Positions 4,802-59,221 of a DNA stretch of 64,000 nucleotides are shown piece after piece (position 1 is the stretch's first letter; every line of letters begins with the position of its first letter). The stretch comes from an uncultured bacterium (lineage in GTDB: Bacteria > Babelota > Babeliae > Babelales > Vermiphilaceae). The stretch lies in assembly GCA_963695335.1 (NCBI GenBank), contig OY968764.1, positions 672,001 through 736,000 of the forward strand, in the 5' to 3' direction. The notes beneath the pieces were generated by a model, which was not told where the DNA came from, made no database searches, and saw nothing but the letters and a program-made list of their open reading frames with translations. The translations under genes were made by a program, and so were the position numbers.

Positions 4802-5860
4802 ATGTATAATTATATCGTTAAGTTGTATTTTTTCGCGCTCGTCCTGAACTTGTTGAAGGATTTCTTCGAGCGCTCAAAGATATCCTTCGACAGGCTCAGG
4901 ACGAGCGCAGGAAAGAAAGTTTTTCTTGCAATGATTGTTGGAATGTATTGTGTGCAAAGCGTGCGTCCAATGGAGCCTGAAAAGTGGAATGGTGATACAA
5001 AAAATGATGTTGCAATAGAGATGTATCATTTTTGGTCCAATGATTATAATCAAAATATCAATAATATAAAGAATGTTGATTTAAAAGAAATTCGGTCAAC
5101 TTTAAATAAAGAAGATTTTTTATCCAGTTCTGATGATACATTAAAGCATCTCTTGTATCTTTCTACGATACGTAAAAATGACGATAAAACGCTTTTTACG
5201 CAAAAACAACAGAATAAGTTTGATGCAGCTTTTAAAACAAAACAATCTGTTCCTATGTGGTTTGGTATTAACGGAGCAGTTATTGTTGGTACATCACTTT
5301 TGCCATGTATTAATTTTACTGGTTTATTACAATGTTCAAATGCAACATTAGTTGGGTGTTTATCTCAACTTGTTACTATCACAACGCCAACAGTAGCTTC
5401 TGTGGCAGGAGCTCTTACTGTGGGGTTTGTGTCTTTATATGCTACGGGACTTTCGCCTGATTATTCTTCTCGTAAAGCAAATAAAGTGCAAGATGAAATA
5501 GGTCATTTGCGTACAAATTATGCAACAATAGCCAAATATTGGATTGATATTTATTTTAAATATCCAGAAAAAGCCCAGTACATTGCTCAAAAAATTGATA
5601 TTGAAGCGTTGAGAACAAGGGCGCAATTAAAAACGCATAAAAAGAGAAGTGGCAGCTCTTTGGTGACTCCTCTTGAAGAAGCATGGCATTTTATTACGCA
5701 TAAGACTGTTCTGATAACATTTACGGAAATTGAAAATTACCTTTATAATAAGATGCATAGCCAAGATATCGATCTTTTTAAGAGACGAATTGAATCCCTT
5801 GAAAGCATTATTTATCAACAAAATGCAGAAATACAAAAATTGAAACAAGAAAAAATATGA
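4802..5860 (+). CDS. Putative secreted/membrane protein with an in-frame palindromic repeat in its N-terminus
   Basis: GAGGGG RBS before ATG 4802; PME motif after a hydrophobic segment; two central hydrophobic segments; C-terminal coiled coil; stop overlaps metG start (ATGA). Confidence 0.7.
   Translation: MYNYIVKLYFFALVLNLLKDFFERSKISFDRLRTSAGKKVFLAMIVGMYCVQSVRPMEPEKWNGDTKNDVAIEMYHFWSNDYNQNINNIKNVDLKEIRSTLNKEDFLSSSDDTLKHLLYLSTIRKNDDKTLFTQKQQNKFDAAFKTKQSVPMWFGINGAVIVGTSLLPCINFTGLLQCSNATLVGCLSQLVTITTPTVASVAGALTVGFVSLYATGLSPDYSSRKANKVQDEIGHLRTNYATIAKYWIDIYFKYPEKAQYIAQKIDIEALRTRAQLKTHKKRSGSSLVTPLEEAWHFITHKTVLITFTEIENYLYNKMHSQDIDLFKRRIESLESIIYQQNAEIQKLKQEKI
4835..4908. repeat. Family A palindromic repeat
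   Basis: GCGCTCGTCCTGAACTTGTTGAAGGAT...ATCCTTCGACAGGCTCAGGACGAGCGC; close copy at 59148-59221. Confidence 0.9.
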
Positions 5861-7782
5861 AAAAAAATAGTTTTTACGTCACTACTCCCATCTATTATGT
5901 CACAGCCAAACCTCATTTGGGATCATTGTATACCACATTACTTGCCGATGTTATTGCCCGTTGGAATAAACTGCTGGGCAATGACACATTTTTTTTAACA
6001 GGTACTGATGAGCATGGGCAAAAGATAGCACAAGCTGCAGCCGCCGCAGGAAAACAACCAAAAGAGTTTGTGGATAGTTTTATTCCTGATTATAAACATG
6101 CATGGCAGATGTATGACATTCAGTACGATAAATTTATTCGTACAACGGATCCAGATCATGTTAAAGGTGCACAAAAATTTACCACTGAGTTGATGGAAAA
6201 GGGGTATGTGTATAAATCTGTTTATGAAGGTTGGTATTGCACATCATGCGAAACATTTGTAGAAGAAATTCATGCAGGTGATCAACGGCTTAAAGGACCA
6301 CAATGCCCAACGTGCGGCAGAGATACGCATATTGTTTCTGAAGAAACATATTTTTTTAAACTGTCTGCGTTTACTGATAAACTTTTGACGTTTTATAAAG
6401 AAAATCCTGATTTTATTGTTCCCAAAGAACGCGCGAATGAAGTGATCAATTTTGTTGCATCAGGATTAAAAGATTTGAGTATTTCCCGAACAACGGTTAA
6501 GTGGGGTATACCATTCCCGAATGATCCTCATCACACATTGTATGTCTGGGTGGATGCATTATCAAATTATATTACCGGTGTTGGGTATGGACAGCCAGAT
6601 AAAATAGATGAGTTTCATAAACGTTGGCCAGCAAATGTGCATCTTCTTGGAAAAGATATTGTACGGTTTCACGCAGTGTTTTGGCCAGCATTTTTGATGG
6701 CTGCAGATTTACCTCTACCAAAACAATTATTAGTCCATGGTTGGATTAAAGTTGATAAACAAAAGATGTCAAAATCTCTTGGCAATGTTGTTGATCCTGT
6801 TGAATTACAAAAAAAATATGGGACCGATCCAATTCGTTATTATTTATTGCGTCAGATTCCGATAAACCAAGATGGTGATTTTAGTATTACTGATGTTGAA
6901 AATCGTATAGAATCTGATCTTGCTAATGATTTGGGTAATTTATTAAATCGTATGTTGGTGCTTGCTGAGAAGTATGATTTGTTTGATGTTGCACCGTGTA
7001 CAGTGTGGTCACCTGCATCATTGGATTTGCGTGATGCAAGTTGGAATGCGATTGAAGATTTTACTGCGCATATGAATGAGTATATGTTTCATCATGCATT
7101 ATCAAGTTTGTGGAAATTTATCAGTAGTACGAATGCGTATTTCCATGGGCAGGAGCCTTGGAAAGTTGCTAAGATTGATCAACAGTTGTTTGCAGAAATT
7201 ATTTCAGCTACGTGTCACAGTTTGCGTACCATTGCACTGTTATTGTGGCCAGTAATGCCACAAAAAATGGAAGAACTTTTACATAGTATTGGTGTTGAAT
7301 TTAAGTTAGAAAATCATACGCTTGAAAATTTAGAACTAAATAGTTGGAATAAACATTTTATGTTGAAGAAATCACCCACTTTGTTTGAGAAGCCTATTAA
7401 AGAAATTGAAGAGGAAAAAATGTCACAAGAAGTTGTACAACAAGAAGAGAAATCATACATCACAATCGATGATGTTGTTAAAGTTGAATTGTTAACCGGA
7501 ACTATTGAAGCGTGCACTGATGTTGCAGGTTCAGATAAGTTGGTGCAAATGACGGTTGATTTGGGAGTGCATGGTAAACGTACTATTTTAGCAGGAATTA
7601 AAAAAGATCATGCGCCATCAGAATTGGTTGGCAGACGTGGACTGTTTATTACCAATTTAAAGCCACGCAAAATGGCTGGAACAGAATCACAAGGTATGAT
7701 GCTTGTTGCAGAAGATGCAGATGGCAAAGTGCAGCTTGTGCAATTCCCTGACAGTGTTGGTAACGGTGTGAGATTGAGATAG
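5857..7782 (+). CDS. metG: Methionine--tRNA ligase with C-terminal tRNA-binding (Trbp111-like) domain
   Basis: TTPIYYV..PHLG (HIGH-like), GTDEHGQK, CxxC knuckle, KMSKS, NLKPRKMAG.ESQGM. Confidence 0.97.
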   Translation: MKKNSFYVTTPIYYVTAKPHLGSLYTTLLADVIARWNKLLGNDTFFLTGTDEHGQKIAQAAAAAGKQPKEFVDSFIPDYKHAWQMYDIQYDKFIRTTDPDHVKGAQKFTTELMEKGYVYKSVYEGWYCTSCETFVEEIHAGDQRLKGPQCPTCGRDTHIVSEETYFFKLSAFTDKLLTFYKENPDFIVPKERANEVINFVASGLKDLSISRTTVKWGIPFPNDPHHTLYVWVDALSNYITGVGYGQPDKIDEFHKRWPANVHLLGKDIVRFHAVFWPAFLMAADLPLPKQLLVHGWIKVDKQKMSKSLGNVVDPVELQKKYGTDPIRYYLLRQIPINQDGDFSITDVENRIESDLANDLGNLLNRMLVLAEKYDLFDVAPCTVWSPASLDLRDASWNAIEDFTAHMNEYMFHHALSSLWKFISSTNAYFHGQEPWKVAKIDQQLFAEIISATCHSLRTIALLLWPVMPQKMEELLHSIGVEFKLENHTLENLELNSWNKHFMLKKSPTLFEKPIKEIEEEKMSQEVVQQEEKSYITIDDVVKVELLTGTIEACTDVAGSDKLVQMTVDLGVHGKRTILAGIKKDHAPSELVGRRGLFITNLKPRKMAGTESQGMMLVAEDADGKVQLVQFPDSVGNGVRLR

Positions 7783-7815
7783 TCAACTACATAATAAAAA
7801 TAAGATTCTTTTTCT

Positions 7816-8000
7816 GCGCTCATCAGCTTCTCCCATCTTCGATTTTTCTTGATGGGGACCCCGATTCAACCCCATTTCCATTATATTCCAATGGGGACCC
7901 CAATTCAGCCCCATTTCCATTTCTTCCAATGGGGACCCCAATTGGAGTAAGACGTAAATTGGGGATAAAAATTGGAGCTAAAGGATATCTTCGAGCGCTT
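7816..8000. repeat. Composite repeat: family C hairpin chain (three TGGGGACCCC units) plus family A fragments
   Basis: Units start at 7853, 7892 and 7930; AAAGGATATCTTCGAGCGCTT (7980-8000) is the reverse complement of 17473-17493. Confidence 0.8.
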
Positions 8001-8012
8001 TTGGTAAAATTC

Positions 8013-9080
8013 ATGAAAAATATAAACATCATTTTTTTGTTACTTATCAGTAATGTAATTATCGGAATGGAAGCTGAACGTAAAAGTTTGGCTTCCTTTT
8101 TTTGTGTTGAGAAATGTGTGCAAAATGAAGACATTTGTACAGTAGTTGCGCAGCAGCATGTGTCCGATCAGAAATGGTGGTATATGGATAAAGAAATTCA
8201 GTATATCAACCAAGGTTGTTTAGATGCATCGTATCAGAAAAAAAACAGTTTTGCTTTTGTGCATTTTAATAAAGCCTGTACAGAAATAATAATTTTTCCC
8301 GGGGGTATTGGGGATTGTTTTATATGTGTGTGTGATAGAAAAAGCGGAAAGGAACGGGAGCGTATTTTTTTTGAAGATTATAATGAGGTCAATTTTTCTT
8401 ACCCTCAAATATGGGCGGATAGACTTTATTCCTCAACTCGTGCTCCTCAGGTCAGTTATAATGAGGGTTTATGGTGTGGTGAGTATTCTTTTTGTGAAGA
8501 ATCTGGAGGATTGAAGGAGGCTCTTGTAGTAGTAAAGCGTGAATATATGTGTGGTCGTGTAACAAATATTAATGAATCCAAAGCTTGTGTGTGGGATAGA
8601 ATAGAAGGAAAGGAATCATTACAGCTTGTGCATGATGGTCCAGTTAATATGGCACATTTTAATCCGCAAGGTATAGAAATAATAACGGCATCAGATGATT
8701 GTACAATGCGTTTATGGCATAGCAAAACAGGGCAAGAGTTGTTGCGTATCGCATATGGTACCTGTGTTCAGTCAGCATGGTTTAATGAGATGGGAACGGA
8801 AATGGTGGTTGCAACCGATGATGGTAACATACAAATTTTTGCGCAGTATAAGACTGATAATTTGCCACAAGTCTTGCTGAAAAAATTATTGCATCTATGG
8901 TTGCAATTGCAAAAGCCAAGTAAAAAAATTGATTCACCTGAAAAATTATTAGATAATGTTGCTCAATTGTTATCGTGTGATAAGAATGAAATGAATATAA
9001 CATGGCAATCGTTTCCAAAACATATGCAGAAAGCGATGTGGTTATCGATGCATAATAAGATTCAGAAATATGGAAAGTAA
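8013..9080 (+). CDS. Secreted WD40-repeat protein, long type, copy 1
   Basis: MKNINIIFLLL..GME signal; HDGPVNMAHFNPQG..IITASDDCTMRLW; start moved from 7929, which lies in the repeat. Confidence 0.85.
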   Translation: MKNINIIFLLLISNVIIGMEAERKSLASFFCVEKCVQNEDICTVVAQQHVSDQKWWYMDKEIQYINQGCLDASYQKKNSFAFVHFNKACTEIIIFPGGIGDCFICVCDRKSGKERERIFFEDYNEVNFSYPQIWADRLYSSTRAPQVSYNEGLWCGEYSFCEESGGLKEALVVVKREYMCGRVTNINESKACVWDRIEGKESLQLVHDGPVNMAHFNPQGIEIITASDDCTMRLWHSKTGQELLRIAYGTCVQSAWFNEMGTEMVVATDDGNIQIFAQYKTDNLPQVLLKKLLHLWLQLQKPSKKIDSPEKLLDNVAQLLSCDKNEMNITWQSFPKHMQKAMWLSMHNKIQKYGK

Positions 9081-9095
9081 ACATAAAGAGCAATA

Positions 9096-9824
9096 ATGAA
9101 GTATGCATATTTAGTTTTTTTGATGAGTATTAGCAACGGTTTTTTATTTTCTATGGAAATGGACTTTGCATCTAGAGATAAAATATGGCGGGTTGATAGA
9201 GAGATTCAGTGTGAGAAGTTGCCTACTTCTTATCGTGGTCAAGAATATTCATTTAAAGATTGGTTGAGATTTATACATTTTAGTAAAAATGGTACAGAGA
9301 TTATAGGGTGGAATCGTGGATTTCCTCTTTGTCTTGTATGGGATAGAAAGAGTGGAATATTGTTAGCGCGGGTCGAAGATGCCACTGCTAATAATCCTGT
9401 ATTTGACGAACCAAGATGGAAAGATAGATTGCCTGAACCACATTTTCCTAAGGAATATCCTGAAGGGTGGAAGAAAGATTTTAATGATTATGACTTAGAA
9501 GAAGAGTCAGAAACTTTGGTGTTAGCAACTAAGAACAAAGAATACCAAGTTTGTGTGTGGGATAAAAGAGAAAAAAGAGAGACATTGCAGCTTGTGCATG
9601 AGAATAGAGTGAATCAGGCACATTTTAATAGAAAAGGTATAGAAATAATCACAGCATCGCAAGATGGTACAATGCGTTTGTGGCATTCACAGACAGGGCA
9701 AGAGTTGTTGCGTATGAATCATGCCTCAAATGTAACAGATGCAGAATTTAATGAAATGGGAACGGAAATAGTTGTTGCAAGAGAAGATGGTAAGATACAA
9801 ATTTTAGTACAAGAAGTTAAATAA
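9096..9824 (+). CDS. Secreted WD40-repeat protein, short type, copy 1
   Basis: Signal + SME; HENRVNQAHFN..IITASQDGTMRLW. Confidence 0.85.
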   Translation: MKYAYLVFLMSISNGFLFSMEMDFASRDKIWRVDREIQCEKLPTSYRGQEYSFKDWLRFIHFSKNGTEIIGWNRGFPLCLVWDRKSGILLARVEDATANNPVFDEPRWKDRLPEPHFPKEYPEGWKKDFNDYDLEEESETLVLATKNKEYQVCVWDKREKRETLQLVHENRVNQAHFNRKGIEIITASQDGTMRLWHSQTGQELLRMNHASNVTDAEFNEMGTEIVVAREDGKIQILVQEVK

Positions 9825-9829
9825 AATTC

Positions 9830-10948
9830 ATGAAAAATATAAACATCATTTTTTTGTTACTCATCAACAATCTTATTAATGCAATGGAAGTGGTTTCTGT
9901 ACCTGCAAATTTCCCTGTTGACTGCAGAAACAGAATCCTTTTTTTTGAGCTTGCTCAAAACAGTCATAACTATGTTGATAAATATGCTGGTGGTGATTCT
10001 GTTAACTTTTCTGGTACTTTTGTTTCTAAAGGAAAGGGTTCTTATGACCCTTTGAGCGAAGTAAGACGTATTCTTTGTAAGATAAGTTGTCTCAATTGGG
10101 AATGGTATGAAAAGCTTGATCAACAGAGGAATAATCCTGTTGCTGCGCGTACTATGATGCAAAATATTGGCATTACTTGCTATTCAAATTTTTTTGGCAA
10201 TAACAGATCTCCTTTTATATCGTATATTGTTAATCGATTTTGTACTCTAGGTGCACAAAAATGCCGTGAATTGAGCTGTCAGTTGTATGATAAAGATCTT
10301 AGTCCAGAAAAAGTTGAGCAATTATATAAAGAAGGAGCTGTTCTTGATTATTGGAATAGAGGACCAAAGGAGACTGTTCTTCGTTATTGGATTATAAAAA
10401 ATGATAAGAATAGTATAGAAATTGTGGAAAAGCTTTTACAATTAGGTGCAAATCCTGATGCTTATTATGAAGAGAGTAATTATTCTCCTCTACCACTAGT
10501 TGTGTGTAATAATAATGTTGATGTAGTTAAATTGTTATTGAGTTATAAAGCAAGAAAGCAATGGTATTGGGTTTTTCGAGACCAGCCTCCTAAATGTATT
10601 GATCTTTTTATTGATTATTCCACAAAAGATGAACTTACTGATGGATTAATTGCTTGTGTTAGATGCAGGGATTATTTACCAGAAATTATGCAGAAATTGA
10701 TTGATAAGGGAGCAAACCCGAGCGCTGCACTCCCTTATGTTTTTACATCTATGATAGAGAATGTTGGTAAATCTACACCTGATCATGATGCATTTAGACA
10801 ATTACGCGTACAAGTGTATGATTTTCTTTGCGCTCAACAAGCGTATGATGCAGAGGTCTACAATAAGATACAAAATCTACAGGAGTTTTTGAGTTCTCTG
10901 GTCAATAAACTTGAACAAAATAAACCGATTTTTGATGATGGTATTTAG
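9830..10948 (+). CDS. Secreted ankyrin-repeat protein, copy 1
   Basis: Signal + AME; IVEKLLQLGANPD, VVKLLLSYKA, LIDKGANP. Confidence 0.85.
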   Translation: MKNINIIFLLLINNLINAMEVVSVPANFPVDCRNRILFFELAQNSHNYVDKYAGGDSVNFSGTFVSKGKGSYDPLSEVRRILCKISCLNWEWYEKLDQQRNNPVAARTMMQNIGITCYSNFFGNNRSPFISYIVNRFCTLGAQKCRELSCQLYDKDLSPEKVEQLYKEGAVLDYWNRGPKETVLRYWIIKNDKNSIEIVEKLLQLGANPDAYYEESNYSPLPLVVCNNNVDVVKLLLSYKARKQWYWVFRDQPPKCIDLFIDYSTKDELTDGLIACVRCRDYLPEIMQKLIDKGANPSAALPYVFTSMIENVGKSTPDHDAFRQLRVQVYDFLCAQQAYDAEVYNKIQNLQEFLSSLVNKLEQNKPIFDDGI

Positions 10949-10975
10949 TGATGATTATTCAAAAGGGAGAAAATA

Positions 10976-12064
10976 ATGAAGAGTATGAAAGTTATTTTTT
11001 TGTTATTCGTGAGTAATCTAATTTTTCCCATGGAAGCTGAACGTAAAAGTTTGGCTTCCTTTTTTTGTGTTGAGCAATGTGTGCAACATCAAGATATTTC
11101 TCAGCATATTTCGCGGCACTGTTTGTCTGATCAGAAGTGGTGGTATGTGGATAAAGAGATTCAGTTTTATGGTTTTAAGCATCATAATAGTTATCATCCA
11201 ATTTTGGGCAGATATCCAAATTATTTAAGATGTGTCTGTTTTGATAGTGCTGGCACAAACATAATAGCTTTTCCTAATGAAGGATGGGGTGATCTTGCAT
11301 GCATATGGAATAGGGATGGAAAAGAGCTAGAGCGCTTAGATCAGGATGCTTTGTATACATTTTGTGACAGCAATGATCAATGGGCAAGTGAATTATATAA
11401 TTCAGGCAATAGTCCTTGGAAGCATGAGTATGCAAAGGATATGCAAAAGTTATTGGATGAGCAATTTGATTTGGCTTCCATGATATGCTGGAATGATGGA
11501 CAGGCTTTTGTGGCATCACAATTTAAAGCATATGGTTGTTGTAGAGTGCATGCTTGGAATCAAAAAGAAAATAAAATATTATTTACCATTCATCATCAAA
11601 ATCTTATTAATTCAGTGGCATTCAATCCACAGGGCATAGAAATGATAACGGCATCATCAGATAAAAGTATGCGTTTGTGGAACAAAAAAACTGGACAACA
11701 ATTATTGCGTATTAATTATGATACGCGTCTTACATCAGCAAGTTTTAATGGGTTGGGAACAGAAATGGTAGTTGCAACAGATGATGGTAACATACAAATT
11801 TTTGCAAAGTATTGTATAGATAATTTGCAGCACATATTATTGAAAAAACTGTTGCATCTATGGTTACAGTTGCAAATGCCAAATAAAGAAATTGATTCAC
11901 CTGAAAAATTATTAGATATTGTTGGGTGCATGTTGCACTGCAATTACGATGAAATAAAAGAAGCATGGCAATCATTTCCAGAGCATATGCAGAATGCTAT
12001 CTGGTTATCAATGCATAAAAAGATTCAGAGATATGGAATAATAAAAGAAGAGGAAAGTGTATGA
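10976..12064 (+). CDS. Secreted WD40-repeat protein, long type, copy 2
   Basis: Paralog of 8013-9080 (MEAERKSLASFFCVE; LLKKLLHLWLQLQ; WQSFP.HMQ). Confidence 0.85.
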   Translation: MKSMKVIFLLFVSNLIFPMEAERKSLASFFCVEQCVQHQDISQHISRHCLSDQKWWYVDKEIQFYGFKHHNSYHPILGRYPNYLRCVCFDSAGTNIIAFPNEGWGDLACIWNRDGKELERLDQDALYTFCDSNDQWASELYNSGNSPWKHEYAKDMQKLLDEQFDLASMICWNDGQAFVASQFKAYGCCRVHAWNQKENKILFTIHHQNLINSVAFNPQGIEMITASSDKSMRLWNKKTGQQLLRINYDTRLTSASFNGLGTEMVVATDDGNIQIFAKYCIDNLQHILLKKLLHLWLQLQMPNKEIDSPEKLLDIVGCMLHCNYDEIKEAWQSFPEHMQNAIWLSMHKKIQRYGIIKEEESV

Positions 12065-12840
12065 ACTGTAAGAATATTATTTTTTTGTTACTTGCGAGTA
12101 ATCTGATTGTTGCGATGGAGCCTGAACATAAAAGTTTTGCTATAACATATCATGAGAAATCTGATAAGCAATGGCGGATGGATAAAGAGATTCAGTTTAA
12201 TACTGAAAAAAAGGATATTCCAAAATTGATACGACATAAAAATGGTTTGAGAAGTGTATGTTTTGATCCCACCGGTAAAAAGATATTAGCTTTTCCTTGG
12301 CATGCCGATTGCTTTGTATGTATATGGGATAGAGATGGAAAAGCGTTGGAATCCTTAGATTTTGACGCTTTTGATCAATTTTCTGAAAATAATAGTGAAT
12401 GGTCTGATAGATTATTGAGTTCAGGTAATTCCCCTGCTTTTCCAATCTATGAAGGTGATGATAGACAGTTATTGGAAAAAGAATTTGGTTGGTTGCCAAT
12501 GGTATGTTTTAATGAAGAACAAGTTTTTGTAGTGCCAAAGTTTAGGGTGTATGGTGGTCATAATGCGTACGCATGGAATCGCTCAGAACAGAAAAGATTG
12601 TTTAGTCTTAAGCATACAGACATAATCTATTCTATAGATTTTAATCCAAAGGGCATAGAAATAATAACTGCATCAGCAGATAAAACTGTGCGTTTGTGGG
12701 ATGCAAAAACAGGTAAAGAATTAGTATGCATTGGTTATGATACACGTGTTACATCTGCAAGTTTTAATCAAGATGGTACAGAGATAGTTGTTGCAACGGA
12801 TGATGGTAAAATACGAGTTTTGGTACAAGATAATAAATAA
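12061..12840 (+). CDS. Secreted WD40-repeat protein, short type, copy 2
   Basis: HTDIIYSIDFNPKG..IITASADKTVRLWD; ends KIRVLVQ like 9096-9824. Confidence 0.85.
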   Translation: MNCKNIIFLLLASNLIVAMEPEHKSFAITYHEKSDKQWRMDKEIQFNTEKKDIPKLIRHKNGLRSVCFDPTGKKILAFPWHADCFVCIWDRDGKALESLDFDAFDQFSENNSEWSDRLLSSGNSPAFPIYEGDDRQLLEKEFGWLPMVCFNEEQVFVVPKFRVYGGHNAYAWNRSEQKRLFSLKHTDIIYSIDFNPKGIEIITASADKTVRLWDAKTGKELVCIGYDTRVTSASFNQDGTEIVVATDDGKIRVLVQDNK

Positions 12841-12877
12841 GTTGTTGATATAAAGTAAAAAATATGAGTTTGTATGT

Positions 12878-12942
12878 TTCGACAAGCTCAACACGAACGG
12901 AGAAAAAAAATATTTAATCCCGTTCGTGCTGAGCCTGTCGAA
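12878..12942. repeat. Family A palindromic repeat variant, intergenic
   Basis: TTCGACAAGCTCAACACGAACGG...CCGTTCGTGCTGAGCCTGTCGAA. Confidence 0.85.
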
Positions 12943-12978
12943 GTATACGAACTCATTAGGTTTAATAGGATTTGTAGA

Positions 12979-14061
12979 ATGCACAAATTATTAACATCAT
13001 TATTATGTGCCGTTATTTTCACTTGTTCTGTTATTGGAATGGAAAAAGAAATATCAGTTCCTGCAAATTTTCCTGATGATTGTAAAAATAAAATATTGAT
13101 TGATTATCTTGTTAAAGATGTTCATAAGCAAATCAAAAATTTTCATAAAGATAGTTGTTATTGTTTTGGTTATAGCGTTGATCAGGTTTGTAGGTTAGCA
13201 GGGCGCCTCATTGTGAGAATTAGTCGCATCAATTGGGATTTTTATAAGATACTGGAAAAAGAAAGAAATGATCCTGTTGCCACTCGTACTATGCTTAAAA
13301 ATATTGTATCTACCTATTATCCAAATCATGAAGGCACTGAATTAGAGATGGTTCATTGGTTTAAGAGTCCTGGGGCACAAAAATGCATTAGATTGAGTAA
13401 TCAATTATTTTTGACTGGAATGACTCCAGAAAAAATTGAACAGTTATATAATGAGGGTGCCTTTCTTAATTATTATGATAGCTATAATTATGTTGATCCT
13501 AGTAAAGAGACGGTTCTGAGTTATTGGGTTGATTGTGGGGCTCAAGAAAGTGACATTATTGTTGAAAAACTTCTTCAGTTGGGAGCAAATCCTAATCTTA
13601 GTGAAGGATATACTTCTTTTCCTTTGATTAAGGCAATGCGAAGGAATAGCATTGAAAAAATTAAATTATTACTGAGCTATAAGGCAAAAAAAGAGTGGTA
13701 TAATGTGTTGTCATGTATATTGTATCATCGTTATATTGATACGATTATTGCTTATTGCACCAAAGATGAGCTTAATGATGGATTGGTTGCTTGTGTTGAT
13801 GCATATGCTTATCGACCAGAAATTATGCAAAAATTGATTGATAATGGAGCAGAACCTAGCGCTGCGCTGCCTCATGTATTAAAAAATATAATTGAAAAAG
13901 TTGATATATTGGATTCAGATAATTCGGCAGTACTCAATTTCAATTTCCTTTGTAATCAAGGAGCATATGATCAAACTGTTTTTGATAAGGTGAAAAATTT
14001 ACAAATAATTTTTGGTGCTCTTGCCAATAATCTTGAAAAGAATAAAGTATTAGAAACTTAA
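12979..14061 (+). CDS. Secreted ankyrin-repeat protein, copy 2
   Basis: Paralog of 9830-10948 (SVPANFP.DC.N.IL; IVEKLLQLGANP); AGGA RBS before ATG 12979. Confidence 0.85.
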   Translation: MHKLLTSLLCAVIFTCSVIGMEKEISVPANFPDDCKNKILIDYLVKDVHKQIKNFHKDSCYCFGYSVDQVCRLAGRLIVRISRINWDFYKILEKERNDPVATRTMLKNIVSTYYPNHEGTELEMVHWFKSPGAQKCIRLSNQLFLTGMTPEKIEQLYNEGAFLNYYDSYNYVDPSKETVLSYWVDCGAQESDIIVEKLLQLGANPNLSEGYTSFPLIKAMRRNSIEKIKLLLSYKAKKEWYNVLSCILYHRYIDTIIAYCTKDELNDGLVACVDAYAYRPEIMQKLIDNGAEPSAALPHVLKNIIEKVDILDSDNSAVLNFNFLCNQGAYDQTVFDKVKNLQIIFGALANNLEKNKVLET

Positions 14062-14110
14062 AAAGAGACTGTAATTTGGAAACGATCAATTCCAAATTAC
14101 AGTCTCTTTT
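14061..14110. terminator. Bidirectional terminator between convergent genes
   Basis: AAAAGAGACTGTAATTTGGAA...TTCCAAATTACAGTCTCTTTT. Confidence 0.85.
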
Positions 14111-14128
14111 GCTCAAAAATAAGAAAAA

Positions 14129-15682
14129 TTACATACCCCAAACGGTTATTATTTTGTTCTCGTACGTATCTTCTTTGTTGAATATTTTTTTATCCCATGA
14201 TTTTCCTGGTGTACGATCAAACACAAGCAAGTGACCTTCGGTTGCATTGCTTGTATCCATATAACCAGCCGTTTGTTCAAGACCTTCAGGAATAGTATGT
14301 TTTCCACGGTTAATTTTAATCTCAATAACAATGCGTTGGTCGCCAAATTCAATAAGTAGATCTACGCGTTTTCTTCCCAAAGCATATTCACGATGAATTT
14401 TACCACCGCCATTTACCACGCGTTGTAAATATGCCATGAGTAATAAATGTGGAGCTGATTCTGGGTAATCAATTTGTTCTAACCAAATAGCAGAATTTAC
14501 ACGGAAAAATTGAGTAAAAGCACTGAGCAGTTTATGCATATTTAAAGATTTGTCTTTATTTTGGTACGATGCAATTCCTGGTACAGTTTCTTGCATACTT
14601 TCTTGTTTGGTATAGACAAGAGCTCGAGGAATAACTTCTTGGTATATAGGGTTTGCTATTCTAATACCTTTTTGTGTGATAAGTCCTAAATCACGTACAT
14701 ATTGTAGATCATCTGGTTTAAAGATTTGTTCTTGTTCTGTACCACTAATGATGGCATCTATAATATAACGTACGCGTGGTTCATGTAATTTATGAGCAAG
14801 TTGATCGATGTGCGTATCACGACGTAAAATGAGTGTTTCTTTTGAGCGTTCAATAATATCTTTGGTGATTGGTTTATTACGATCAGTAACATCTCTAAAG
14901 CATGCTTGATATGCAAGAGCATTGACAAGCCAAGGTTGGCCTTGAGTTAAGTAAAAAGCATATTCTATAGCTTCGTCACTGAATTTTTGTCCTGTTTCTT
15001 GAGTATGTTGATTATATAAATTACGAACTTGATCTAATGAAAAATTAGGTAAGGTTAAGCTTTCAGCTTTTATATTAAATGCACTGCCTCCAAGTACCAT
15101 GTTATGTTCTGCTTCAGACCAAATCATGTAGTCACGTACATCACGTACTCCAAATAAACAAACTGATTGTGGGAAATGTTTTGGTCGATTGGGGTAACCA
15201 GCGCGTAGTTGGCGTAACACGGAAATAAGTGTATCTCCAATTAATGAATCAATTTCATCAATAAAAAGAACAATGGGTTTATCTGATGTAGAGCTCCATT
15301 CTTGTAAAAATCCTTGTAGACTTGCTCCAGATAAATTTTTTAATGCTTGTTCAATGATTGGAAAGATGGAATCATTGAGATGGTAATATATTTTTGCTTG
15401 GTTTTGAAATTGCTTCAAAATAATTTCCATTCCCTTTTCTACATTGCCTCGTGCAATTTGAGCTGGTTCAACATTAACATAAAATGCTTTGTAATGACTT
15501 TCTTTATTGAGTTCTTCAACAAGTATTTGAATAGCTGTTGTTTTTCCACTTTGGCGTGGTGCGTGAAGAATAAAATATTTTTTTTGATCAATAAGTTGTT
15601 TAACTTCAATTTCATTTAATCTATGTGGTATAAAATAATGTTCTTTTGGGTTAATTGGACCCGCTGTATTAAAAAAACGCAT
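14129..15682 (-). CDS. AAA-like ATPase with C-terminal PD-(D/E)XK nuclease-like domain
   Basis: MRFFNTAGP; Walker A APRQSGKTT; Walker B LFIDEID; REYALGRKRVDL..IEIK. Confidence 0.85.
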   Translation of the reverse strand: MRFFNTAGPINPKEHYFIPHRLNEIEVKQLIDQKKYFILHAPRQSGKTTAIQILVEELNKESHYKAFYVNVEPAQIARGNVEKGMEIILKQFQNQAKIYYHLNDSIFPIIEQALKNLSGASLQGFLQEWSSTSDKPIVLFIDEIDSLIGDTLISVLRQLRAGYPNRPKHFPQSVCLFGVRDVRDYMIWSEAEHNMVLGGSAFNIKAESLTLPNFSLDQVRNLYNQHTQETGQKFSDEAIEYAFYLTQGQPWLVNALAYQACFRDVTDRNKPITKDIIERSKETLILRRDTHIDQLAHKLHEPRVRYIIDAIISGTEQEQIFKPDDLQYVRDLGLITQKGIRIANPIYQEVIPRALVYTKQESMQETVPGIASYQNKDKSLNMHKLLSAFTQFFRVNSAIWLEQIDYPESAPHLLLMAYLQRVVNGGGKIHREYALGRKRVDLLIEFGDQRIVIEIKINRGKHTIPEGLEQTAGYMDTSNATEGHLLVFDRTPGKSWDKKIFNKEDTYENKIITVWGM

Positions 15683-15700
15683 ATTACTTTCTCCTAGCTA

Positions 15701-15949
15701 TTAATGTTCAGCTAATTTTCTAAGGACGTCATCATATTTCTCAATAAGTTCTTCATATAATTTTTGTAATTTTGGATTGTCGCTAATAGTTCTAACTGAT
15801 GGATGATCACGCACAGGTTCAATGATGATATTTGCTCCATCAGTTTTAAGATTAATCCGTGTATCTTCGGTGATATTGAGTAGTTCGAGGATTGGTTTGT
15901 CGATAAGAATTGCGAGACTGTTGCCATGTTTGGTGAGTTTTTTAACCAT
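15701..15949 (-). CDS. AbrB/MazE-family antitoxin-like DNA-binding protein
   Basis: KKLTKHGNSLAILIDKPILELL swapped-hairpin signature. Confidence 0.85.
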   Translation of the reverse strand: MVKKLTKHGNSLAILIDKPILELLNITEDTRINLKTDGANIIIEPVRDHPSVRTISDNPKLQKLYEELIEKYDDVLRKLAEH

Positions 15950-16128
15950 GAAAAATCCTTTTTATATCTGATTTTTTAATTTAATAGTAGCTTAGACAAT
16001 GTTTTGACGTCGGTCAATACATTGTTGTTTTGTAAAGAAATAATATTTTGATGTTCCCTTGATACTTTCTCTTTGAATATTGCATATTTGAATAAGATGA
16101 TAATGTTTTTATAAAAATAGGGGGAGTG

Positions 16129-17472: not shown

Positions 17473-17647
17473 AAGCGCTCGAAGATATCCTTTAACCCCA
17501 ACAATCGTTACACTCTTATTGGGGACCCCGATTGGAACGGAGTGAAAATTGGGGTAAAAGATATCCTTCAACCTGTCTTCGCCAAGGCTTCGGCAGGCAC
17601 GGCAAGTTCTTAAGACAGGTGTTTACTAGTGAGCCTGTCGAACTATC
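17473..17647. repeat. Nested composite repeat (families A, C and B) flanking the IS110 right end
   Basis: A centre 17473-17493, C unit 17495-17555, A arm GATATCCTTCAAC..CAAGTTC split by B at ~17572-17603, A arm TGAGCCTGTCGAA 17630-17642. Confidence 0.8.
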
Positions 17648-17664
17648 AGCGATTATGATCAAAG

Positions 17665-18630
17665 TCAAGTAGAATAGGCATTTTTATTAGGTGCCCACTT
17701 TCTATTTTCAGTAAGAAGAACATTAGCAAGTATAATAAACTTGCGCATTACAGCAATTAGGGCAATCTTAGATGGTTTTCCTTCTTCACGTAATCGCTCA
17801 TAAAATTTCTTAAAATCTGGATTATGTTGAACAGCTGAAAGTGTAGGCATATACAGCATTTTTCGTGGTAAGGATCTACCTTCTCTAATGATAGATTTTT
17901 TCTTATAATTACCACTTTCATTGGTGTATGGAGCTACGCCTAATAAGGCTGCAACTTGCTTATTTCCAATACTTCCTAATTCAGAAAAAAAAGCAATTAA
18001 CGTTGCTGATGTTCCTTTTCCAGCACCAGGAATTGATGTGATAATATTTTGCTTATGTTTCCAGTCATCATCATTATCAATTAATTGTTCTATTTCTTTT
18101 TCCAATTCCTTAACTTGTTCATCCATAAAATCAATATGTTGTTGAATTTTGTCTTTACAAAATTCAACTTGTGGATGAGCCAATCGTGTTTTTTCTCGAC
18201 TGATCATTCCCGTCAAATCACTTTTCCTTCTTATTAAAGCTTTCAATAATTCTTCATTCTCTTTTGGCACTTTAATGCGTGTTTCCTCTGATAATTCTTT
18301 TTGTTGTGCAAACAAAGCAATCATAGATGCATCAATCTTGTCTGTTTTTGCTTTTGCTCCATCTGATGCGATAAACGACTTAATTCGTTTCGGCTCAATT
18401 AGCCATACAAAATATCCAGCATTACTTAATGTACGAATCAATAATTTTTCGTATCCACCAGATGATTCACATACAACGCGAACAACATTGTACTCAGAAA
18501 ATACATTAAGTATTTTATTGAGACCAGCGGCGCTATTTGGCGTTTTAAAATATTGATTCAATGGACGTAAAAAAACATCCAAATTATCTTTTGAAATATC
18601 GACACCAACAAATATTTCTGTTAGCTTCAT
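17665..18630 (-). CDS. IS110-family (DEDD) transposase / bridge recombinase
   Basis: GVDISKD, CESSGGY, KTDKIDA (RuvC-like DEDD); SIPGAG and GVAPYTNESG (Tnp-domain serine); ALIAVMRK; ORF intact. Confidence 0.95.
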   Translation of the reverse strand: MKLTEIFVGVDISKDNLDVFLRPLNQYFKTPNSAAGLNKILNVFSEYNVVRVVCESSGGYEKLLIRTLSNAGYFVWLIEPKRIKSFIASDGAKAKTDKIDASMIALFAQQKELSEETRIKVPKENEELLKALIRRKSDLTGMISREKTRLAHPQVEFCKDKIQQHIDFMDEQVKELEKEIEQLIDNDDDWKHKQNIITSIPGAGKGTSATLIAFFSELGSIGNKQVAALLGVAPYTNESGNYKKKSIIREGRSLPRKMLYMPTLSAVQHNPDFKKFYERLREEGKPSKIALIAVMRKFIILANVLLTENRKWAPNKNAYST

Positions 18631-18807
18631 AGTAATTCTTCCTCATAATACGAGCCTTGCGCTCAAGCGATTATTCGAATCTTCTACAAATCTGGTTGAT
18701 AGCTCTTTAGCTGAAAACGGTTCTTGTAACCTAGGACGAGCACAAGACGCTATCAACCTTTTTTTATAGCCTAGTTTCCTAAACCTAAAAAACTCAATAA
18801 TCTACAT
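18631..18807 (-). ncRNA. Predicted IS110 bridge RNA (5' hairpin, target-binding loop, donor-binding loop)
   Basis: Stem GGUUGAUAGC/GCUAUCAACC encloses GCUCGUCCU + hairpin + UUCAG; second loop AUAAUCGCU + GAGC/GCUC hairpin + UAUGAG; ends approximate. Confidence 0.8.
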
Positions 18808-18855
18808 GCTTTTATCATATGAGGACGAGCGCGAGAAAGGATTGGATTTAAAGTG

Positions 18856-21806: not shown

Positions 21807-21931
21807 ACCCTTCGATACATTCTCTTCCGCAAAGCTACAGAGAACACTCAGGGCGAGCGGTGGGAGGTGCAATAAGTTATTTTCTTCCGCTCGTCCTGAG
21901 TGTTTTTGCTTGCAAAAATGTATCGAAGGGT
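21807..21931. repeat. Family A' palindromic repeat (arms carry internal hairpins; B-like insert in left arm)
   Basis: CCCTTCGATACA..CACTCAGGGCGAGCGG...CCGCTCGTCCTGAGTG..TGTATCGAAGGG. Confidence 0.9.
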
Positions 21932-25513: not shown

Positions 25514-26796
25514 AATTACATGTATCAAGTATGATGATTACTAAATTTATTAAATCAGTTAGAGCACCTCTCACCGCTCGCCCTGAGTGTTTTACGAAGC
25601 GTAGCGTAGTAAAATGTATCGAAGGGTGCAAAAATCAAAAGTTATTGTTATGTCGCATCCTGCGATACATTTTTGAAGACAAAAACACTCAGGACGAGCG
25701 GAGGGTAAGCAAGTGTATTTTTGTAGTCACCATTTTTATGACATCTTTCTTTACCCATCCTTTCTCCTACGATTCCGCAATTTATAAAGCTCAAAAGGGC
25801 AATTGGCAAGATGCGCACAGTGCATTAAGCAGTATTATTACGGATAATCCTGATAGAGCAGATGTTATGTATGATGCAGGAGTTGCTGCATATAATCTTG
25901 GCAACAAATGTCAGGCAGCAACTTGTTTTGCGCGTGCAGCTGAATGTAGTGCTGATAAAAATATTGCGTTTTGTGCTCATTTTAATGCGGGCAATACATA
26001 TGTTGATGAAAAAGAATTAGAACAAGCGCTTGTAGAATATGATAAAGCGCTTGCAATAGAATCTGATAATGAGTATGCGCGTCATAATCGTGATCGTGTT
26101 GCGCAGATGTTACAAGAGCAGGAAAAACAGCAAGAGAATAAGCAAGATGATCAGCAGCAGAATAAAGATCAAGAAAAAAATGAACAAAACCAGGATGACA
26201 AGCAAGATCAGGATAAGCAGCAAAAAGATAAGCAAGATGGACAGCAAGACAGCCAAGATTCCTCCTCCGCTGAAGCTTCGGCGGACAGGCAAAACCAAAA
26301 GCAAAATGGTAATGATAAAAAAGATGGTCAACAAAACCAAAACGGCAACGACACGCAAAATGAAAAAAACGACTCATCGCAAGATGAATTGTCAAATAAG
26401 CAATCCCAAGGTGATAGCGATCAAAGAGACGCTGCAAACAACAGCAAAGACACACAGCGACAAGAGTATGGGAAGAATAAAAAAGAGCGCCATCAAAATT
26501 CCACCAATGATAAGAAGGGGGATGGTAAAAATGAGTTTGATAAACAATCGCAAGATGCACAAAAAGAGGGCAATGAGCAACAAAGAGATAAACATGGAAC
26601 AACTCCTGGTCAACAAAATATAAGTGATGATAAAGATAATCTATCAGCGCAAGAGGGTCAAGAGCAAGCGATCACTGATCCATGGCTTTTGAGAATTCTG
26701 AATGATCAGGAAATGCTTGATAAGACAGTTAATAAACAGTTAATGGAAGCAAAAATTCGTCAACATGGTGGAAAAAATGGTCAAAATTGTTGGTAA
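25510..26796 (+). CDS. batC: BatC-like TPR protein with Q/D/K/N-rich tail; carries two in-frame palindromic inserts
   Basis: TPRs (YDAGVAAYNLG, HFNAGNTY..ALVEYDKAL), low-complexity tail, terminal W; ATGA overlap with batB. Confidence 0.8.
   Translation: MKLHVSSMMITKFIKSVRAPLTARPECFTKRSVVKCIEGCKNQKLLLCRILRYIFEDKNTQDERRVSKCIFVVTIFMTSFFTHPFSYDSAIYKAQKGNWQDAHSALSSIITDNPDRADVMYDAGVAAYNLGNKCQAATCFARAAECSADKNIAFCAHFNAGNTYVDEKELEQALVEYDKALAIESDNEYARHNRDRVAQMLQEQEKQQENKQDDQQQNKDQEKNEQNQDDKQDQDKQQKDKQDGQQDSQDSSSAEASADRQNQKQNGNDKKDGQQNQNGNDTQNEKNDSSQDELSNKQSQGDSDQRDAANNSKDTQRQEYGKNKKERHQNSTNDKKGDGKNEFDKQSQDAQKEGNEQQRDKHGTTPGQQNISDDKDNLSAQEGQEQAITDPWLLRILNDQEMLDKTVNKQLMEAKIRQHGGKNGQNCW
25574..25701. repeat. 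Family A' palindromic repeat inside the batC reading frame
   Basis: CCGCTCGCCCTGAGTG..GTATCGAAGGG...CGATACATTTTTGAAGACAAAAACACTCAGGACGAGCGG; right arm nearly identical to 30370-30413. Confidence 0.9.
26260..26290 (+). repeat. Family B 31-bp palindromic repeat in frame in batC (SSSAEASADR)
   Basis: TCCTCCTCCGCTGAAGCTTCGGCGGACAGGC; 3 mismatches to the reverse complement of 57545-57575. Confidence 0.85.
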
Positions 26797-29190: not shown

Positions 29191-30369
29191 ATGATTAAAC
29201 GTTTTTCTATTGTGCATTCGGTACTGTTTAGTGTGTGTATAAGTATCATGATGATTCTCATGATACTTCTTTTTATTGAATATCGTTTTTTTTGCAAACA
29301 AGCGCGGGAAATGGTTGAGCTTAAACAGCAGTATGCTGTGTATGTTGCTTTATTTAATCAACGTTTATATCCCGATGATTCTTGTCTATATTCCAATGAT
29401 CCTAGTAGCGCTCGCCCTGAACTTGTTGAAGGGTATCTTGGAGCACTCGAAGATATCCTTTTTCCCCAGTTTTCGTTTCACTCCAAACCGGGGTCCCCGT
29501 CTGAAGGAACTGAAGATGGGGTTAAACAGGCTCAGGGTGAGCGCGGGGTGACAAGTGACGATTTTGATGCTTCATCTTTTGACCGGGTCCCCGATCGAAA
29601 CGATAGTGAAGATTGGGGTGGAGTTGATGAATCATCAATTTCCATGGATGAAATTCTTGCCGCAGAAGCCAGCGACGCACCAGATGATGACGATGATTAT
29701 GTAGATGATTCTTTTGTGGTAATTAATAGGCAACCTGAATACCTTAAGCAATCAACATTTGATTATATGCAGGCACAAGAACTTAATTCATTAATGACAG
29801 CAATTGATGTTGATCGTTGGTCTGATTATACTGAATCATCTTCACGCCCAGTTATATCTGCACCAACAAAAAAACCTACTGCACAAAATAAGCGTGTTAC
29901 TAAACCTGTAACTAAGCCCAAACAGCATATTACAGTGCAACGTTCGTTTAAAGATTGTGGATTTATTTTACCGATTGATGCAGGTAAATTTTGGTTGAGT
30001 TCACTGTTTGGTCCACGTAAACGTGTTGACGGAACATGGGGATTTCATCATGGCATTGATATGGCGGCTGTAAAAGGTACGCCTGTAAAAGTAGCACGAG
30101 CGGGAACGGTTGTAGAAGCTGGTTTTCAGACAGGATACGGTAATACCGTTGTTGTGCAGCATTCTGATGCATTAAAAACACGCTATGCTCATTTGCATAC
30201 CATTCGTGTATATATGGGACAAAAGATAAAACAAGGTATTATTGTGGGGACGGTGGGAGAAACAGGATTTATTAGAAAAAAAGGAAAAGACGGTTCACAT
30301 TTGCATTTTGAAGTGTATGAAAAAGGTAAGCGAGTGAATCCTATGCATTGTTTACCAAGAGCAGTATAA
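29191..30369 (+). CDS. M23 family peptidase with N-terminal TM and in-frame repeat inserts
   Basis: HHGIDMAA, GYGNTVVVQH, TRYAHL, HLHFEV. Confidence 0.9.
   Translation: MIKRFSIVHSVLFSVCISIMMILMILLFIEYRFFCKQAREMVELKQQYAVYVALFNQRLYPDDSCLYSNDPSSARPELVEGYLGALEDILFPQFSFHSKPGSPSEGTEDGVKQAQGERGVTSDDFDASSFDRVPDRNDSEDWGGVDESSISMDEILAAEASDAPDDDDDYVDDSFVVINRQPEYLKQSTFDYMQAQELNSLMTAIDVDRWSDYTESSSRPVISAPTKKPTAQNKRVTKPVTKPKQHITVQRSFKDCGFILPIDAGKFWLSSLFGPRKRVDGTWGFHHGIDMAAVKGTPVKVARAGTVVEAGFQTGYGNTVVVQHSDALKTRYAHLHTIRVYMGQKIKQGIIVGTVGETGFIRKKGKDGSHLHFEVYEKGKRVNPMHCLPRAV
29408..29619. repeat. Family A repeat (29408-29544) with nested family C unit, plus a C fragment (29583-29619), all within the M23 ORF
   Basis: GCGCTCGCCCTGAACTTGTTGAAGGG...CAGGCTCAGGGTGAGCGC; CCCCAG..GGGGTCCCC..TGGGGT at 29464-29522. 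Confidence 0.85.
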
Positions 30370-30469
30370 TCCTTCGATACATTTTTGAAGACAAAAACAC
30401 TCAGGATGACCGGAAGATAATGATGATTCCCGCTCGCCCTGAGTGCCCCGTTAGGGGTGTATCGAAGGG
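30370..30469. repeat. Family A' palindromic repeat, intergenic
   Basis: TCCTTCGATACA..CACTCAGGATGACCGG...CCGCTCGCCCTGAGTG..TGTATCGAAGGG. Confidence 0.9.
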
Positions 30470-33400: not shown

Positions 33401-33474
33401 GGCGGCATAGCCAAGTGGTAAGGCATGGGTCTGCAAAACCTTGATCCCCGGTTCGAATCCGGGTGCCGCCTCCA
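33401..33474 (+). tRNA. tRNA-Cys (GCA)
   Basis: GGCGGCA/TGCCGCC acceptor stem, CTGCAAA anticodon loop, GTTCGAATC, CCA end. Confidence 0.97.
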
Positions 33475-33620
33475 GTCTTCGTTGCTACGCAACTTCGTCT
33501 GGCTGCGCCAATATAAAAAATAAATAAGTTTTTTCTTATTGGGTACCCAACCGTAGCGTTAGCGAAGGTAGGGTTAAAAGACTGTCCGACGTAGTTCGAT
33601 AGAACGTAGACGGACTAGCT
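33475..33620 (+). repeat. Family D repeat modules after tRNA-Cys
   Basis: GTCTTCGTTGCTACGCAACTTCGTCTGGCTGCGCCA (33475-33510) and CTGTCCGACGTAG..CGTAGACGGACTAGCT (33582-33620). Confidence 0.8.
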
Positions 33621-33683: not shown

Positions 33684-33770
33684 GCCGGGATGGCGGAATA
33701 GGTAGACGCAAGGGACTTAAAATCCCTCGAGTGTAAACTCGTGCCGGTTCGAGTCCGGCTCTCGGCACCA
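33684..33770 (+). tRNA. tRNA-Leu (TAA)
   Basis: GCCGGGA/TCTCGGC acceptor stem, CTTAAAA anticodon loop, long variable arm, CCA end. Confidence 0.97.
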
Positions 33771-33924
33771 GTCTTCGTTGCTGCGCAACTTCGTCTGGCT
33801 GCGCCAACAAATGAATGTTATACAAGAGATTAACTTTGAAATTTTGTAAAGAAGGCTGTCCGACGTAGCGTGAGTCCGAAGAAGCCATAGGCGAAAACGG
33901 ATCGAAGGCGTAGACGGACTAGCT
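33771..33924 (+). repeat. Family D repeat modules after tRNA-Leu
   Basis: 33771-33806 differs from 33475-33510 at one base; 33856-33924 has the same ends as 33582-33620 with a longer loop. Confidence 0.8.
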
Positions 33925-54895: not shown

Positions 54896-54919
54896 AAAGA
54901 GGCCGATTAAGGCCTCTTT
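54896..54919 (-). terminator. dnaJ terminator
   Basis: AAAGAGGCC-gattaa-GGCCTCTTT with the A tract on + giving a U tract on -. Confidence 0.8.
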
Positions 54920-54941
54920 GAATTCACATAACTTGTGTGCA

Positions 54942-56078: not shown

Positions 56079-56104
56079 AATGGCCTCTTTTTGTTCGATT
56101 GGCT

Positions 56105-56365: not shown

Positions 56366-56468
56366 AAAAATCCATATAGTTAAAGCCATCATTTTGTGGC
56401 TAAATTAATATTTTACCTTTCTATTATAACATAAAATTAGGCTTATGCTAAGGGGAAAGGGTGGATTT

Positions 56469-57020: not shown

Positions 57021-57083
57021 ATTCTCTCCAACTCGTTTTTTACTTAACCTTAGCACAGCTATAAGAAAATAGTGAACTGTTTT

Positions 57084-58091: not shown

Positions 58092-58150
58092 TGAATTCCT
58101 TTTTTTTTGATTCCATTTTACGTCATTTAGCTACAAAAATAAAATAAGTT

Positions 58151-59122
58151 CTACTCTTTCATTAGAAATGCATTTTTTTGTTTTTTGACGATTGACCATT
58201 TTTGATGGACGGCATGCGTGCCGCCATTTTTATGTTGCAAGAATCTCATAATTTCATCAAGAAATGCTTGTGTCGCTGGAAATGGTACATCTTCAGTAAT
58301 TAACCAATGCATAAGAATGCGCGTGCGCAGTGTTTCATCAAGTGCAAGTAACTGTGGGATGTTGATAATGTGTTGGTTATTTTCGATACGCGAAATTTCT
58401 GCAAATGTTGTGTGCGTCAAATTTTCTAAAAACTGTTCAGTTTCTTTAAGACGCTTTAGCGTAAAAATAAAATTGGTTGCAAATCTATCATCGCATGTGC
58501 GCAATGCAGGCAATACGTTCATGCGGATGCGGTTGCGTAAATAATCAGACGAATCATTGGTTGCATCAGTTGCGTATGGAATGTTGTGTTCATGGAGCCA
58601 TGCAAGAATATCTGATTTGTTTGTTTCCAGCAATGGTCTGACATAATTACCATGTTGTGGTTTGATAGCAGTTAATCCTGTCAAACTTGAACCGCGAATT
58701 AAGCGAATAAAAAATGTTTCTTCTTGATCTTGTGCATGATGTGCAAGGGCAATTGTATCAGCATTGTATTCGCGTAAAACTTTTTCAAAGAAGTAACGGC
58801 GCATATTTCTGCCATACTCTTCTTGTGAGCCATTGTGTTTGAATGTTGCTGATAATTCAGATCTTTTTGCAGTTACAAAAGGGATGTTGAGTTTTTGTGC
58901 AAGGGCTTCACAATCTTTTTGTTCTTGAGCGGCCTCTATGCGCCATTCATGGTTAAGATGTGCGGCGATGAGTGTGAGATTATATTCTTGTTGCAGTGAT
59001 GTGAGAAAATATAATAAAAAAACAGAGTCGGGCCCTCCGGAGAGCCCAACTATAATTACGTGGCCTGATTTAATCAGGTTGTTTTTTTTGATGTACTGTT
59101 GAATTTGTGTGAGAATATTCAT
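58151..59122 (-). CDS. tilS: tRNA(Ile)-lysidine synthetase
   Basis: GLSGGPDS, AHLNH, LAHHAQDQEET, RPLL, RNRIR. Confidence 0.95.
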   Translation of the reverse strand: MNILTQIQQYIKKNNLIKSGHVIIVGLSGGPDSVFLLYFLTSLQQEYNLTLIAAHLNHEWRIEAAQEQKDCEALAQKLNIPFVTAKRSELSATFKHNGSQEEYGRNMRRYFFEKVLREYNADTIALAHHAQDQEETFFIRLIRGSSLTGLTAIKPQHGNYVRPLLETNKSDILAWLHEHNIPYATDATNDSSDYLRNRIRMNVLPALRTCDDRFATNFIFTLKRLKETEQFLENLTHTTFAEISRIENNQHIINIPQLLALDETLRTRILMHWLITEDVPFPATQAFLDEIMRFLQHKNGGTHAVHQKWSIVKKQKNAFLMKE

Positions 59123-59147
59123 TTGCTATACGCGCACGTTTTTTCTT

Positions 59148-59221
59148 GCGCTCGTCCTGAACTTGTTGAAGGATATCTTTGAGCGCTCTAAGATGCCCTT
59201 CGACAGGCTCAGGGTGAGCGC
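59148..59221. repeat. Family A palindromic repeat between gyrB and tilS
   Basis: GCGCTCGTCCTGAACTTGTTGAAGGATATC...CCCTTCGACAGGCTCAGGGTGAGCGC. Confidence 0.9.

Follow-up and report, generated by a model that had tools for sequence, protein, structure and literature searches.

What leads a mobile element into one arm of a hairpin repeat while other arms of the same repeat stand empty? The question is raised by a 64,000-nucleotide stretch of DNA ("the window" in what follows; positions 672,001 to 736,000 of contig OY968764.1, assembly GCA_963695335.1, Vermiphilaceae, Babelota; G000:C1:672001-736000 in our labels), which carries an insertion sequence (IS) of the IS110 group within such an arm. 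The source genome (G000) is a single contig of 1.37 Mb with 35.7% GC; other G labels denote genomes of the phylum or congeners, and L labels individual IS110-homolog or other loci. The element very probably homes by bridge-RNA base pairing into an abundant, older family of hairpins that resemble repetitive extragenic palindromes (REPs), a pairing of guide and host repeat that the first-pass annotation of the window had proposed and that the copies in perfect arms and the homologs described below bear out.

Three identical copies of 1176 bp, each bounded by CT at both ends, are present in the source genome. All three are intergenic and interrupt GCGCTCGTC followed by the CT core and GA, after which two sites read ACTT and one TAGT, and excision in silico restores intact repeat subtypes known elsewhere in the genome (a scarless target). 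Before insertion the genome held 199 arms, which fall by two variant letters into 75 GT, 76 GC, 34 AT and 14 AC arms. The presence of 3/3 copies in arms with a perfect left match has a probability of about 2e-14 for random genome positions, and repeat targeting by the element is beyond doubt. Mapping all copies and arms, the check suggested by the annotation, linked guide match to occupancy and placed no copy outside the arms. By inserting always at the same base of a palindrome that is abundant and mostly extragenic, the element belongs to the REP-targeting IS110 type known from IS621 and ISPpu10.

In the window, 10 matches to GCTCGTCCTGA with at most one mismatch were found against 0.21 expected, a number equalled in 0/100 shuffles. 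The five exact matches, which the annotation had described as unoccupied landing sites, are all there and all form arms of modular hairpin repeats (Table 1); the variants that it had noticed in other arms were also recovered, GCTCGCCCTGA (GC) at 21848, 25576, 29410 and 30432 and GCTCACCCTGA (AC) at 29532-29542 and 59209-59219. The continuation CTGAA occurs only at 4837 and 59150, the two sites that had been singled out for it, and these are as good as the occupied sites for the right guide; 4896, 21889 and 25689 continue CTGAG. Site 4837 is regarded as intergenic because orthologs of the open reading frame (ORF) at 4802 align only from residue 41-44, and site 25689 lies ahead of residue 71-74 of a batC-like ORF, where its alignment with three congeners begins.

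The recombinase scores 199.5 bits against NF033542 (cut-off 140) and matches the solved recombinases of ISCro4 (E 1e-41) and IS621 (E 7.5e-40), and its residues D11, E55, D97, D100 and S239 are invariant across 11 close homologs. A DEDD domain with a conserved C-terminal serine, a 2-nt core and a scarless target identify it, as predicted from sequence, as a bridge recombinase of the IS110 group. Two further traits of the group are predicted for the element, namely a left-end RNA whose target and donor loops co-vary with the DNA, and a promoter formed at the circle junction, where the joined ends read TTGACT-17-TATGAT. Rfam models matched two tRNAs only in the window and gave no bridge RNA match. 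Four DNA sequencing runs contained no new insertion site and no circle joint (loose ends in X1, a run that may stem from the source population, matched the flanks of other copies in the source genome), and no circle joint was seen in the assembled contigs. By analogy with IS621, the element would be excised or copied out to a circle, on which the junction promoter would form and drive expression of the bridge RNA, and recombination would then take place at the CT core.

Homologs of the element carry the second line of evidence. A match to it was found in 22 of the 261 genomes of the phylum. Parsing covered 31 homolog loci, of which six had no detectable end (L088, L091, L103 and L105-L107); once repeated copies were set aside, 17 elements remained, with guides read from alignment columns. 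The left guides of these 17 agree with their own targets at 119/153 positions (null 75.5+-5.1) and the right guides at 95/119 (null 64.4+-4.3), values reached by 0/20000 permutations in either case. The targets are repeat families in G162, G177, G018, G069, G139, G138 and G199. Additionally, from 80 metagenome loci the closest 17 were examined (L245 falls outside the selection pattern; a readable guide or end is missing from L234, L236 and L239). Among genomes and metagenome loci together, ten elements insert in the same register, and in 10/10 of them the guide equals the occupied variant (4 GT, 4 GC and 2 AT; permutation p 3.5e-4), with switches within three separate subclades of a quick tree. 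The relative L232 (68% identical) has a GC guide and sits in a GC arm, being one letter off in target guide and target and also in donor guide and donor, and L233 (58% identical) has an AT guide and sits in an AT arm; both form a supported clade with the G000 element in the quick tree. Because these sister elements carry GT, GC and AT guides, natural one-letter reprogramming appears to partition the repeat subtypes, each element mainly using one of them. The G000 element itself would prefer GT arms continuing GAA or GAT, and variant arms would be used poorly by its guide and well by sister guides. In the source genome variant arms are occupied in 0/124 cases, and the CTGAG class, 56 of the 75 perfect-left arms, has 0 occupied.

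Several observations weigh against so close a correspondence. Only three insertions exist in the source genome, and the choice of the GT class by 3/3 of them among all 199 arms gives only p 0.052; within the 75 GT arms, the 18-arm best class (right-guide match of at least 5/6) gives p 0.012 for a class defined after looking. Discrimination among arms as judged from this genome alone is weak. Across 25 homolog insertions there are 73 guide-target mismatches, of which 22 are wobble pairs and 51 are not, and certain elements agree with their target on a single side (L002 has left 4/9). The guides are thus not strict, since mismatches are common and some matches one-sided, and the latter resemble half-match recombination by IS621 described in a preprint. 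Moreover, the homolog targets in G254 and G245, when searched in their hosts, are not repeats (the G101 target gave one match), the permutation p values are optimistic because the homologs are related, and the phylogeny is a quick tree.

The homologs display further variation. In a single contig the termini of L233 appear inverted relative to transposase and guide RNA, and still read TTGACT-17-TATGAT when joined. L002, L093, L094, L101, L111 and L247 target a second palindrome family of the type AG-CT-ATGGCGGACA, with 10-50 copies in 4/5 hosts searched, and L089, L099, L239, L242 and L243 insert into the hairpin family of the G000 element, or into one like it, at different registers or on the opposite strand. 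L088 terminates in a reconstituted donor junction, the start of the left end is duplicated in L093, L097 combines duplicated flanks with a poor match on the right, and in L234 other sequence has taken the place of the left end. Many IS110 copies of Pseudomonas wadenswilerensis (L012-L023, L037 and L038; 35% identical) lie at one position of the host REP.

Guide pairing may not be the only determinant, and hairpin structure might also select sites in a dual match such as that of ISPpu10, for which a preprint describes a stem-loop determinant (10.64898/2026.03.19.712850). Every target is a hairpin, and 3/3 occupied arms start GCGCTC compared with 48 of the 75 GT arms; on the other hand, relatives use other registers and non-repeated sites, which leaves this a doubtful but possible contribution, and one that would complement the guide rather than replace it. 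It is less likely that wobble pairing (rG:dT, rU:dG) makes all four variants usable, GT-only occupancy being then a chance of small numbers. By base-pairing logic either change still permits a wobble with a GU guide, an rG:dT pair occurs in the main natural target of IS621 (Durrant et al., 2024; PMC11208160), L241 and L099 are wobble insertions, and the p value from the source genome is the borderline one given above. However, 0/12 same-register insertions (the ten elements plus two extra G000 copies) wobble at the two variant letters, and guides specifying CTGAA were found in CTGAG arms in 0/6 cases compared with 5/6 for guides specifying CTGAG.

The arm variants themselves were compared with congeners. 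Scored on the stem, variant T is accompanied by partner A in 88/91 arms and C by G in 79/79 (88:3 versus 0:79; 25 of the 196 arms of the source genome have no partner motif within 60 nt). In G008, a congener assembled in one contig, 92% complete and without a transposase match, the same covariation is 95:1 versus 6:85, and all four classes are present (GT, GC, AT and AC at 65, 93, 41 and 12). The ratio of GT to GC arms is 72:76 in the source genome and 65:93, 43:51 and 22:33 in congeners without an IS match; across congeners it extends from 33:5 (G007) to 0:15 (G006), the source genome standing near the middle. The element had no match in any of the 10 congeners. The congener G002 is not counted as IS-free because its contig C28 (L116) breaks off precisely at the CT core in the arm that follows topA, orthologous to the insertion in the window, hinting at an unassembled IS; none of its other 69 matches lies at a contig start, contig ends having been judged for fetched loci only. 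The variants are considered old structural subtypes because they are stem-compensated and occur in the same mix in congeners without the IS, and these subtypes would be older than the element.

The co-evolutionary readings fare poorly against this record. A guide-versus-subtype chase between the IS110 clade and the widespread hairpin, in which guides change by single letters to keep up with the GT, GC and AT subtypes or shift to a different register and IS pressure shifts host subtype frequencies (33:5 to 0:15), seems improbable; its guide-tracking half is supported and its reciprocal half is not, and if it were true, host and transposon would be co-evolving by way of an RNA guide. Still less credit is given to an arms race in which variants spread by evading the guide and guides pursue them, the escape alleles that the first-pass annotation had suspected. 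It would account for the empty variant arms, for the exact tracking in 10/10 relatives and for the wide range of congener ratios, and the present absence of the IS from congeners is compatible with past exposure to lost elements. Against it, the variants are compensated stem subtypes, the same four classes persist in G008, sister guides match the variants, and three identical copies suggest a recent and rare IS that would exert small pressure on 199 arms.

The annotation had also supposed that the repeats could seed recombinase-mediated rearrangements visible as synteny breaks at arms. The source genome and G008 share 662 anchors that are collinear except for local and single-gene moves, with breaks in 4 of the 114 arm-bearing gaps and 44 of the 547 arm-free gaps (a tendency, if any, towards depletion at arms; Fisher p 0.11) and in 0/3 IS-bearing gaps, and the gene order of the window is kept in 4/4 congeners examined. 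Although ISPpu10 insertions in REPs flank amplifications of >100 kb in laboratory evolution (10.64898/2026.03.19.712850), the flanks of L097 and termini of L233 fit such events, and the comparison is one pair at about 77% amino-acid identity, blind to transient or within-species events, the unenriched breaks make it very unlikely that arms serve as rearrangement hubs. Rearrangement is plausible in principle but neither new, because it is known for ISPpu10, nor seen here.

With homing by guide pairing as the preferred reading, insertions would survive at intergenic arms, and the safe-harbour role that the annotation had ascribed to the repeats holds in part. Outside homology-supported coding spans lie 184 of the 199 arms (a ceiling, as only genes with a G008 match were scored), together with 3/3 copies; within such spans lie 15, for at least one of which (window 25689) a miscalled gene start is probable. 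What does not fit is that perfect-left sites stand in frame at genome positions 150795 (ddl, best class) and 581949 (pheT), where insertion would be disruptive, so repeat targeting would not be fully harmless. In-frame repeats were observed in the two-domain D-Ala-D-Ala ligase gene (ddl, twice), dprA (twice), pheT, a pgk-like gene and tsaD, and the repeat-derived inserts of 24 aa in pheT and 12 aa in tsaD are absent in G008. These copies and that of the M23 peptidase gene (Table 1) lie in frame in otherwise intact genes and, for M23, pheT and tsaD, are missing from orthologs; they read as coding palindromes like the Rickettsia palindromic elements (RPEs).

Table 1. Features of the IS110 locus and of the repeat arms (window coordinates unless marked as genome coordinates; empty sites are exact copies of GCTCGTCCTGA).
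Feature	Position	Strand	Remarks
Empty site, best class	4837..4847	+	Right guide 5/6; intergenic
Empty site, CTGAG class	4896..4906	-	Right guide 4/6; opposite arm of hairpin 4835-4908
Right half of occupied repeat (GATAG-continuing subtype) with neighbouring repeat modules	17474..17647	-	Intact sister copies elsewhere in genome
IS110 element	17648..18823	-	1176 bp including CT core at both ends
-35 box TTGACT of predicted circle-junction promoter	17663..17668	-	17 nt from -10 box after end joining
IS110 recombinase, 321 aa	17665..18630	-	PF01548 and PF02371
Non-coding left end, predicted bridge RNA	18631..18823	-	Homolog alignment, guide matches
Right donor guide TATGAG (predicted)	18642..18647	-	6/6 against element left end
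Left donor guide ATAATCGCT (predicted)	18666..18674	-	9/9 against element right end
Target-binding loop (predicted)	18694..18758	-	Outer 8-bp stem paired in 15-17/17 homologs per position
Right target guide TTTTCAG (predicted)	18711..18717	-	Specifies CTGAAA
Left target guide GCTCGTCCT (predicted)	18733..18741	-	Matches occupied left target 9/9
-10 box TATGAT of predicted circle-junction promoter	18814..18819	-	Sequence match
Left half of occupied arm (GCGCTCGTC)	18824..18832	-	Sixth arm, holds IS110
Empty site, CTGAG class	21889..21899	+	Outward pair with GC-variant arm 21848-21858
Empty site, CTGAG class	25689..25699	-	Paired with GC-variant arm 25576-25586
In-frame repeat in M23 peptidase gene	29408..29545	+	Has GC and AC arms; G005, G006 and G008 lack about 50 codons
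GC-variant arm	30432..30442	+	Intergenic
Empty site, best class	59150..59160	+	Flanked by tilS-like gene and gyrB; AC-variant partner arm 59209-59219
Genes with in-frame repeats (ddl, dprA, pheT, pgk-like, tsaD; genome coordinates, as listed)	149054-151516, 847408-848712, 579965-582409, 1048063-1049247, 439332-440519		

As to what might mobilise the repeat itself, no gene resembling a REP-associated tyrosine transposase (RAYT) was found in the source genome; its three Y1 transposases, near-identical copies at 369218, 574578 and 1166633, are of IS200/605 type and are not flanked by arms. A small GIY-YIG nuclease gene (L315, 565584-565799 of the genome) has dimers of the repeat family on either side in a RAYT-like layout and is a candidate mobiliser; the literature search found no paper linking GIY-YIG nucleases with REPs. 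A short palindrome of a single kind lies 3' of tRNA genes at 33448-33511 and 33744-33807 of the window and near 205000 of the genome. Between metG and topA (window 7929-17466) there is a variable island, different among congeners, that encodes paralogous WD40 and ankyrin proteins along with one AAA and one DnaJ-domain protein. The lineage is probably Candidatus Dependentiae: a homolog with 42% identity carries that name, and both the size of the genome and its ankyrin and WD40 content are in keeping with the group.

The core mechanism is already established, and what appears to be added here is the series of guides and subtypes, for which no printed account was found. The literature searched on Dependentiae, Babelota or TM6 and on IS110-REP coevolution held no description of this case (supplements may list such targets), and the Babela genome paper makes no mention of palindrome or IS110. 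Bridge-RNA targeting of host repeats would thereby extend to a lineage with small genomes, probably Candidatus Dependentiae, which are parasites of protists, and a natural one-letter guide series with matching insertion sites may be useful for questions of guide evolution and wobble tolerance.

An analogous pairing of IS and repeat in a different lineage, as the annotation had put it, is what was found, in an arrangement already known. In E. coli, 144 of the 173 insertion sites of IS621 lie in REPs through the bridge RNA (Durrant et al., 2024; PMC11208160). The element described here shares with IS621 the DEDD and serine recombinase, the CT core, a left-end RNA with left and right target guides (LTG, RTG) and left and right donor guides (LDG, RDG) and a host REP as target; it differs in its lineage (probably Candidatus Dependentiae) and repeat family, in being known from sequence alone and in a left target match of 9/9, where IS621 uses a wobble. 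Tobes and Pareja (2006; PMC1525189) reported that every copy of ISPpu9, ISPpu10, ISPa11 and ISRm19 lies at one set position within a REP. All four resemble the G000 element as members of the IS110 family with such a constant REP position, and ISPpu9 and ISPpu10 share a 2-bp repeat as well, whereas the relatives studied here appear to divide a single repeat family among themselves by subtype and register in a way that is readable from their guides. For ISPpu10, 97.1% of REP targets are intergenic (10.64898/2026.03.19.712850); mostly intergenic REP targets, many empty sites and a hairpin target are common to both, while in the source genome no rearrangement was seen and some perfect targets lie inside housekeeping genes.

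The hairpins have counterparts in the CGTC REPs and the Rickettsia RPEs, which are also hairpin dimers, mainly intergenic and in some cases in frame in genes (Di Nocera et al., 2013; PMC3733652). CGTC-1 to CGTC-4 have a terminal CGTC, a stem of 8-9 bp starting AT, a loop of 4-5 nt and a CCA tail; compared by text description, the present family has CGTC in GT arms only, and its stem, RYCC..GGRY, encloses an interior that is longer, so that the geometry of stem and loop does not seem to fit those families. That guides are reprogrammed naturally between related elements had been noted before for seekRNAs of the IS110/IS1111 elements (Siddiquee et al., 2024; PMC11187229), and the one-letter tracking of repeat subtypes, absent from the examined parts of that paper, is what the elements described here appear to contribute.

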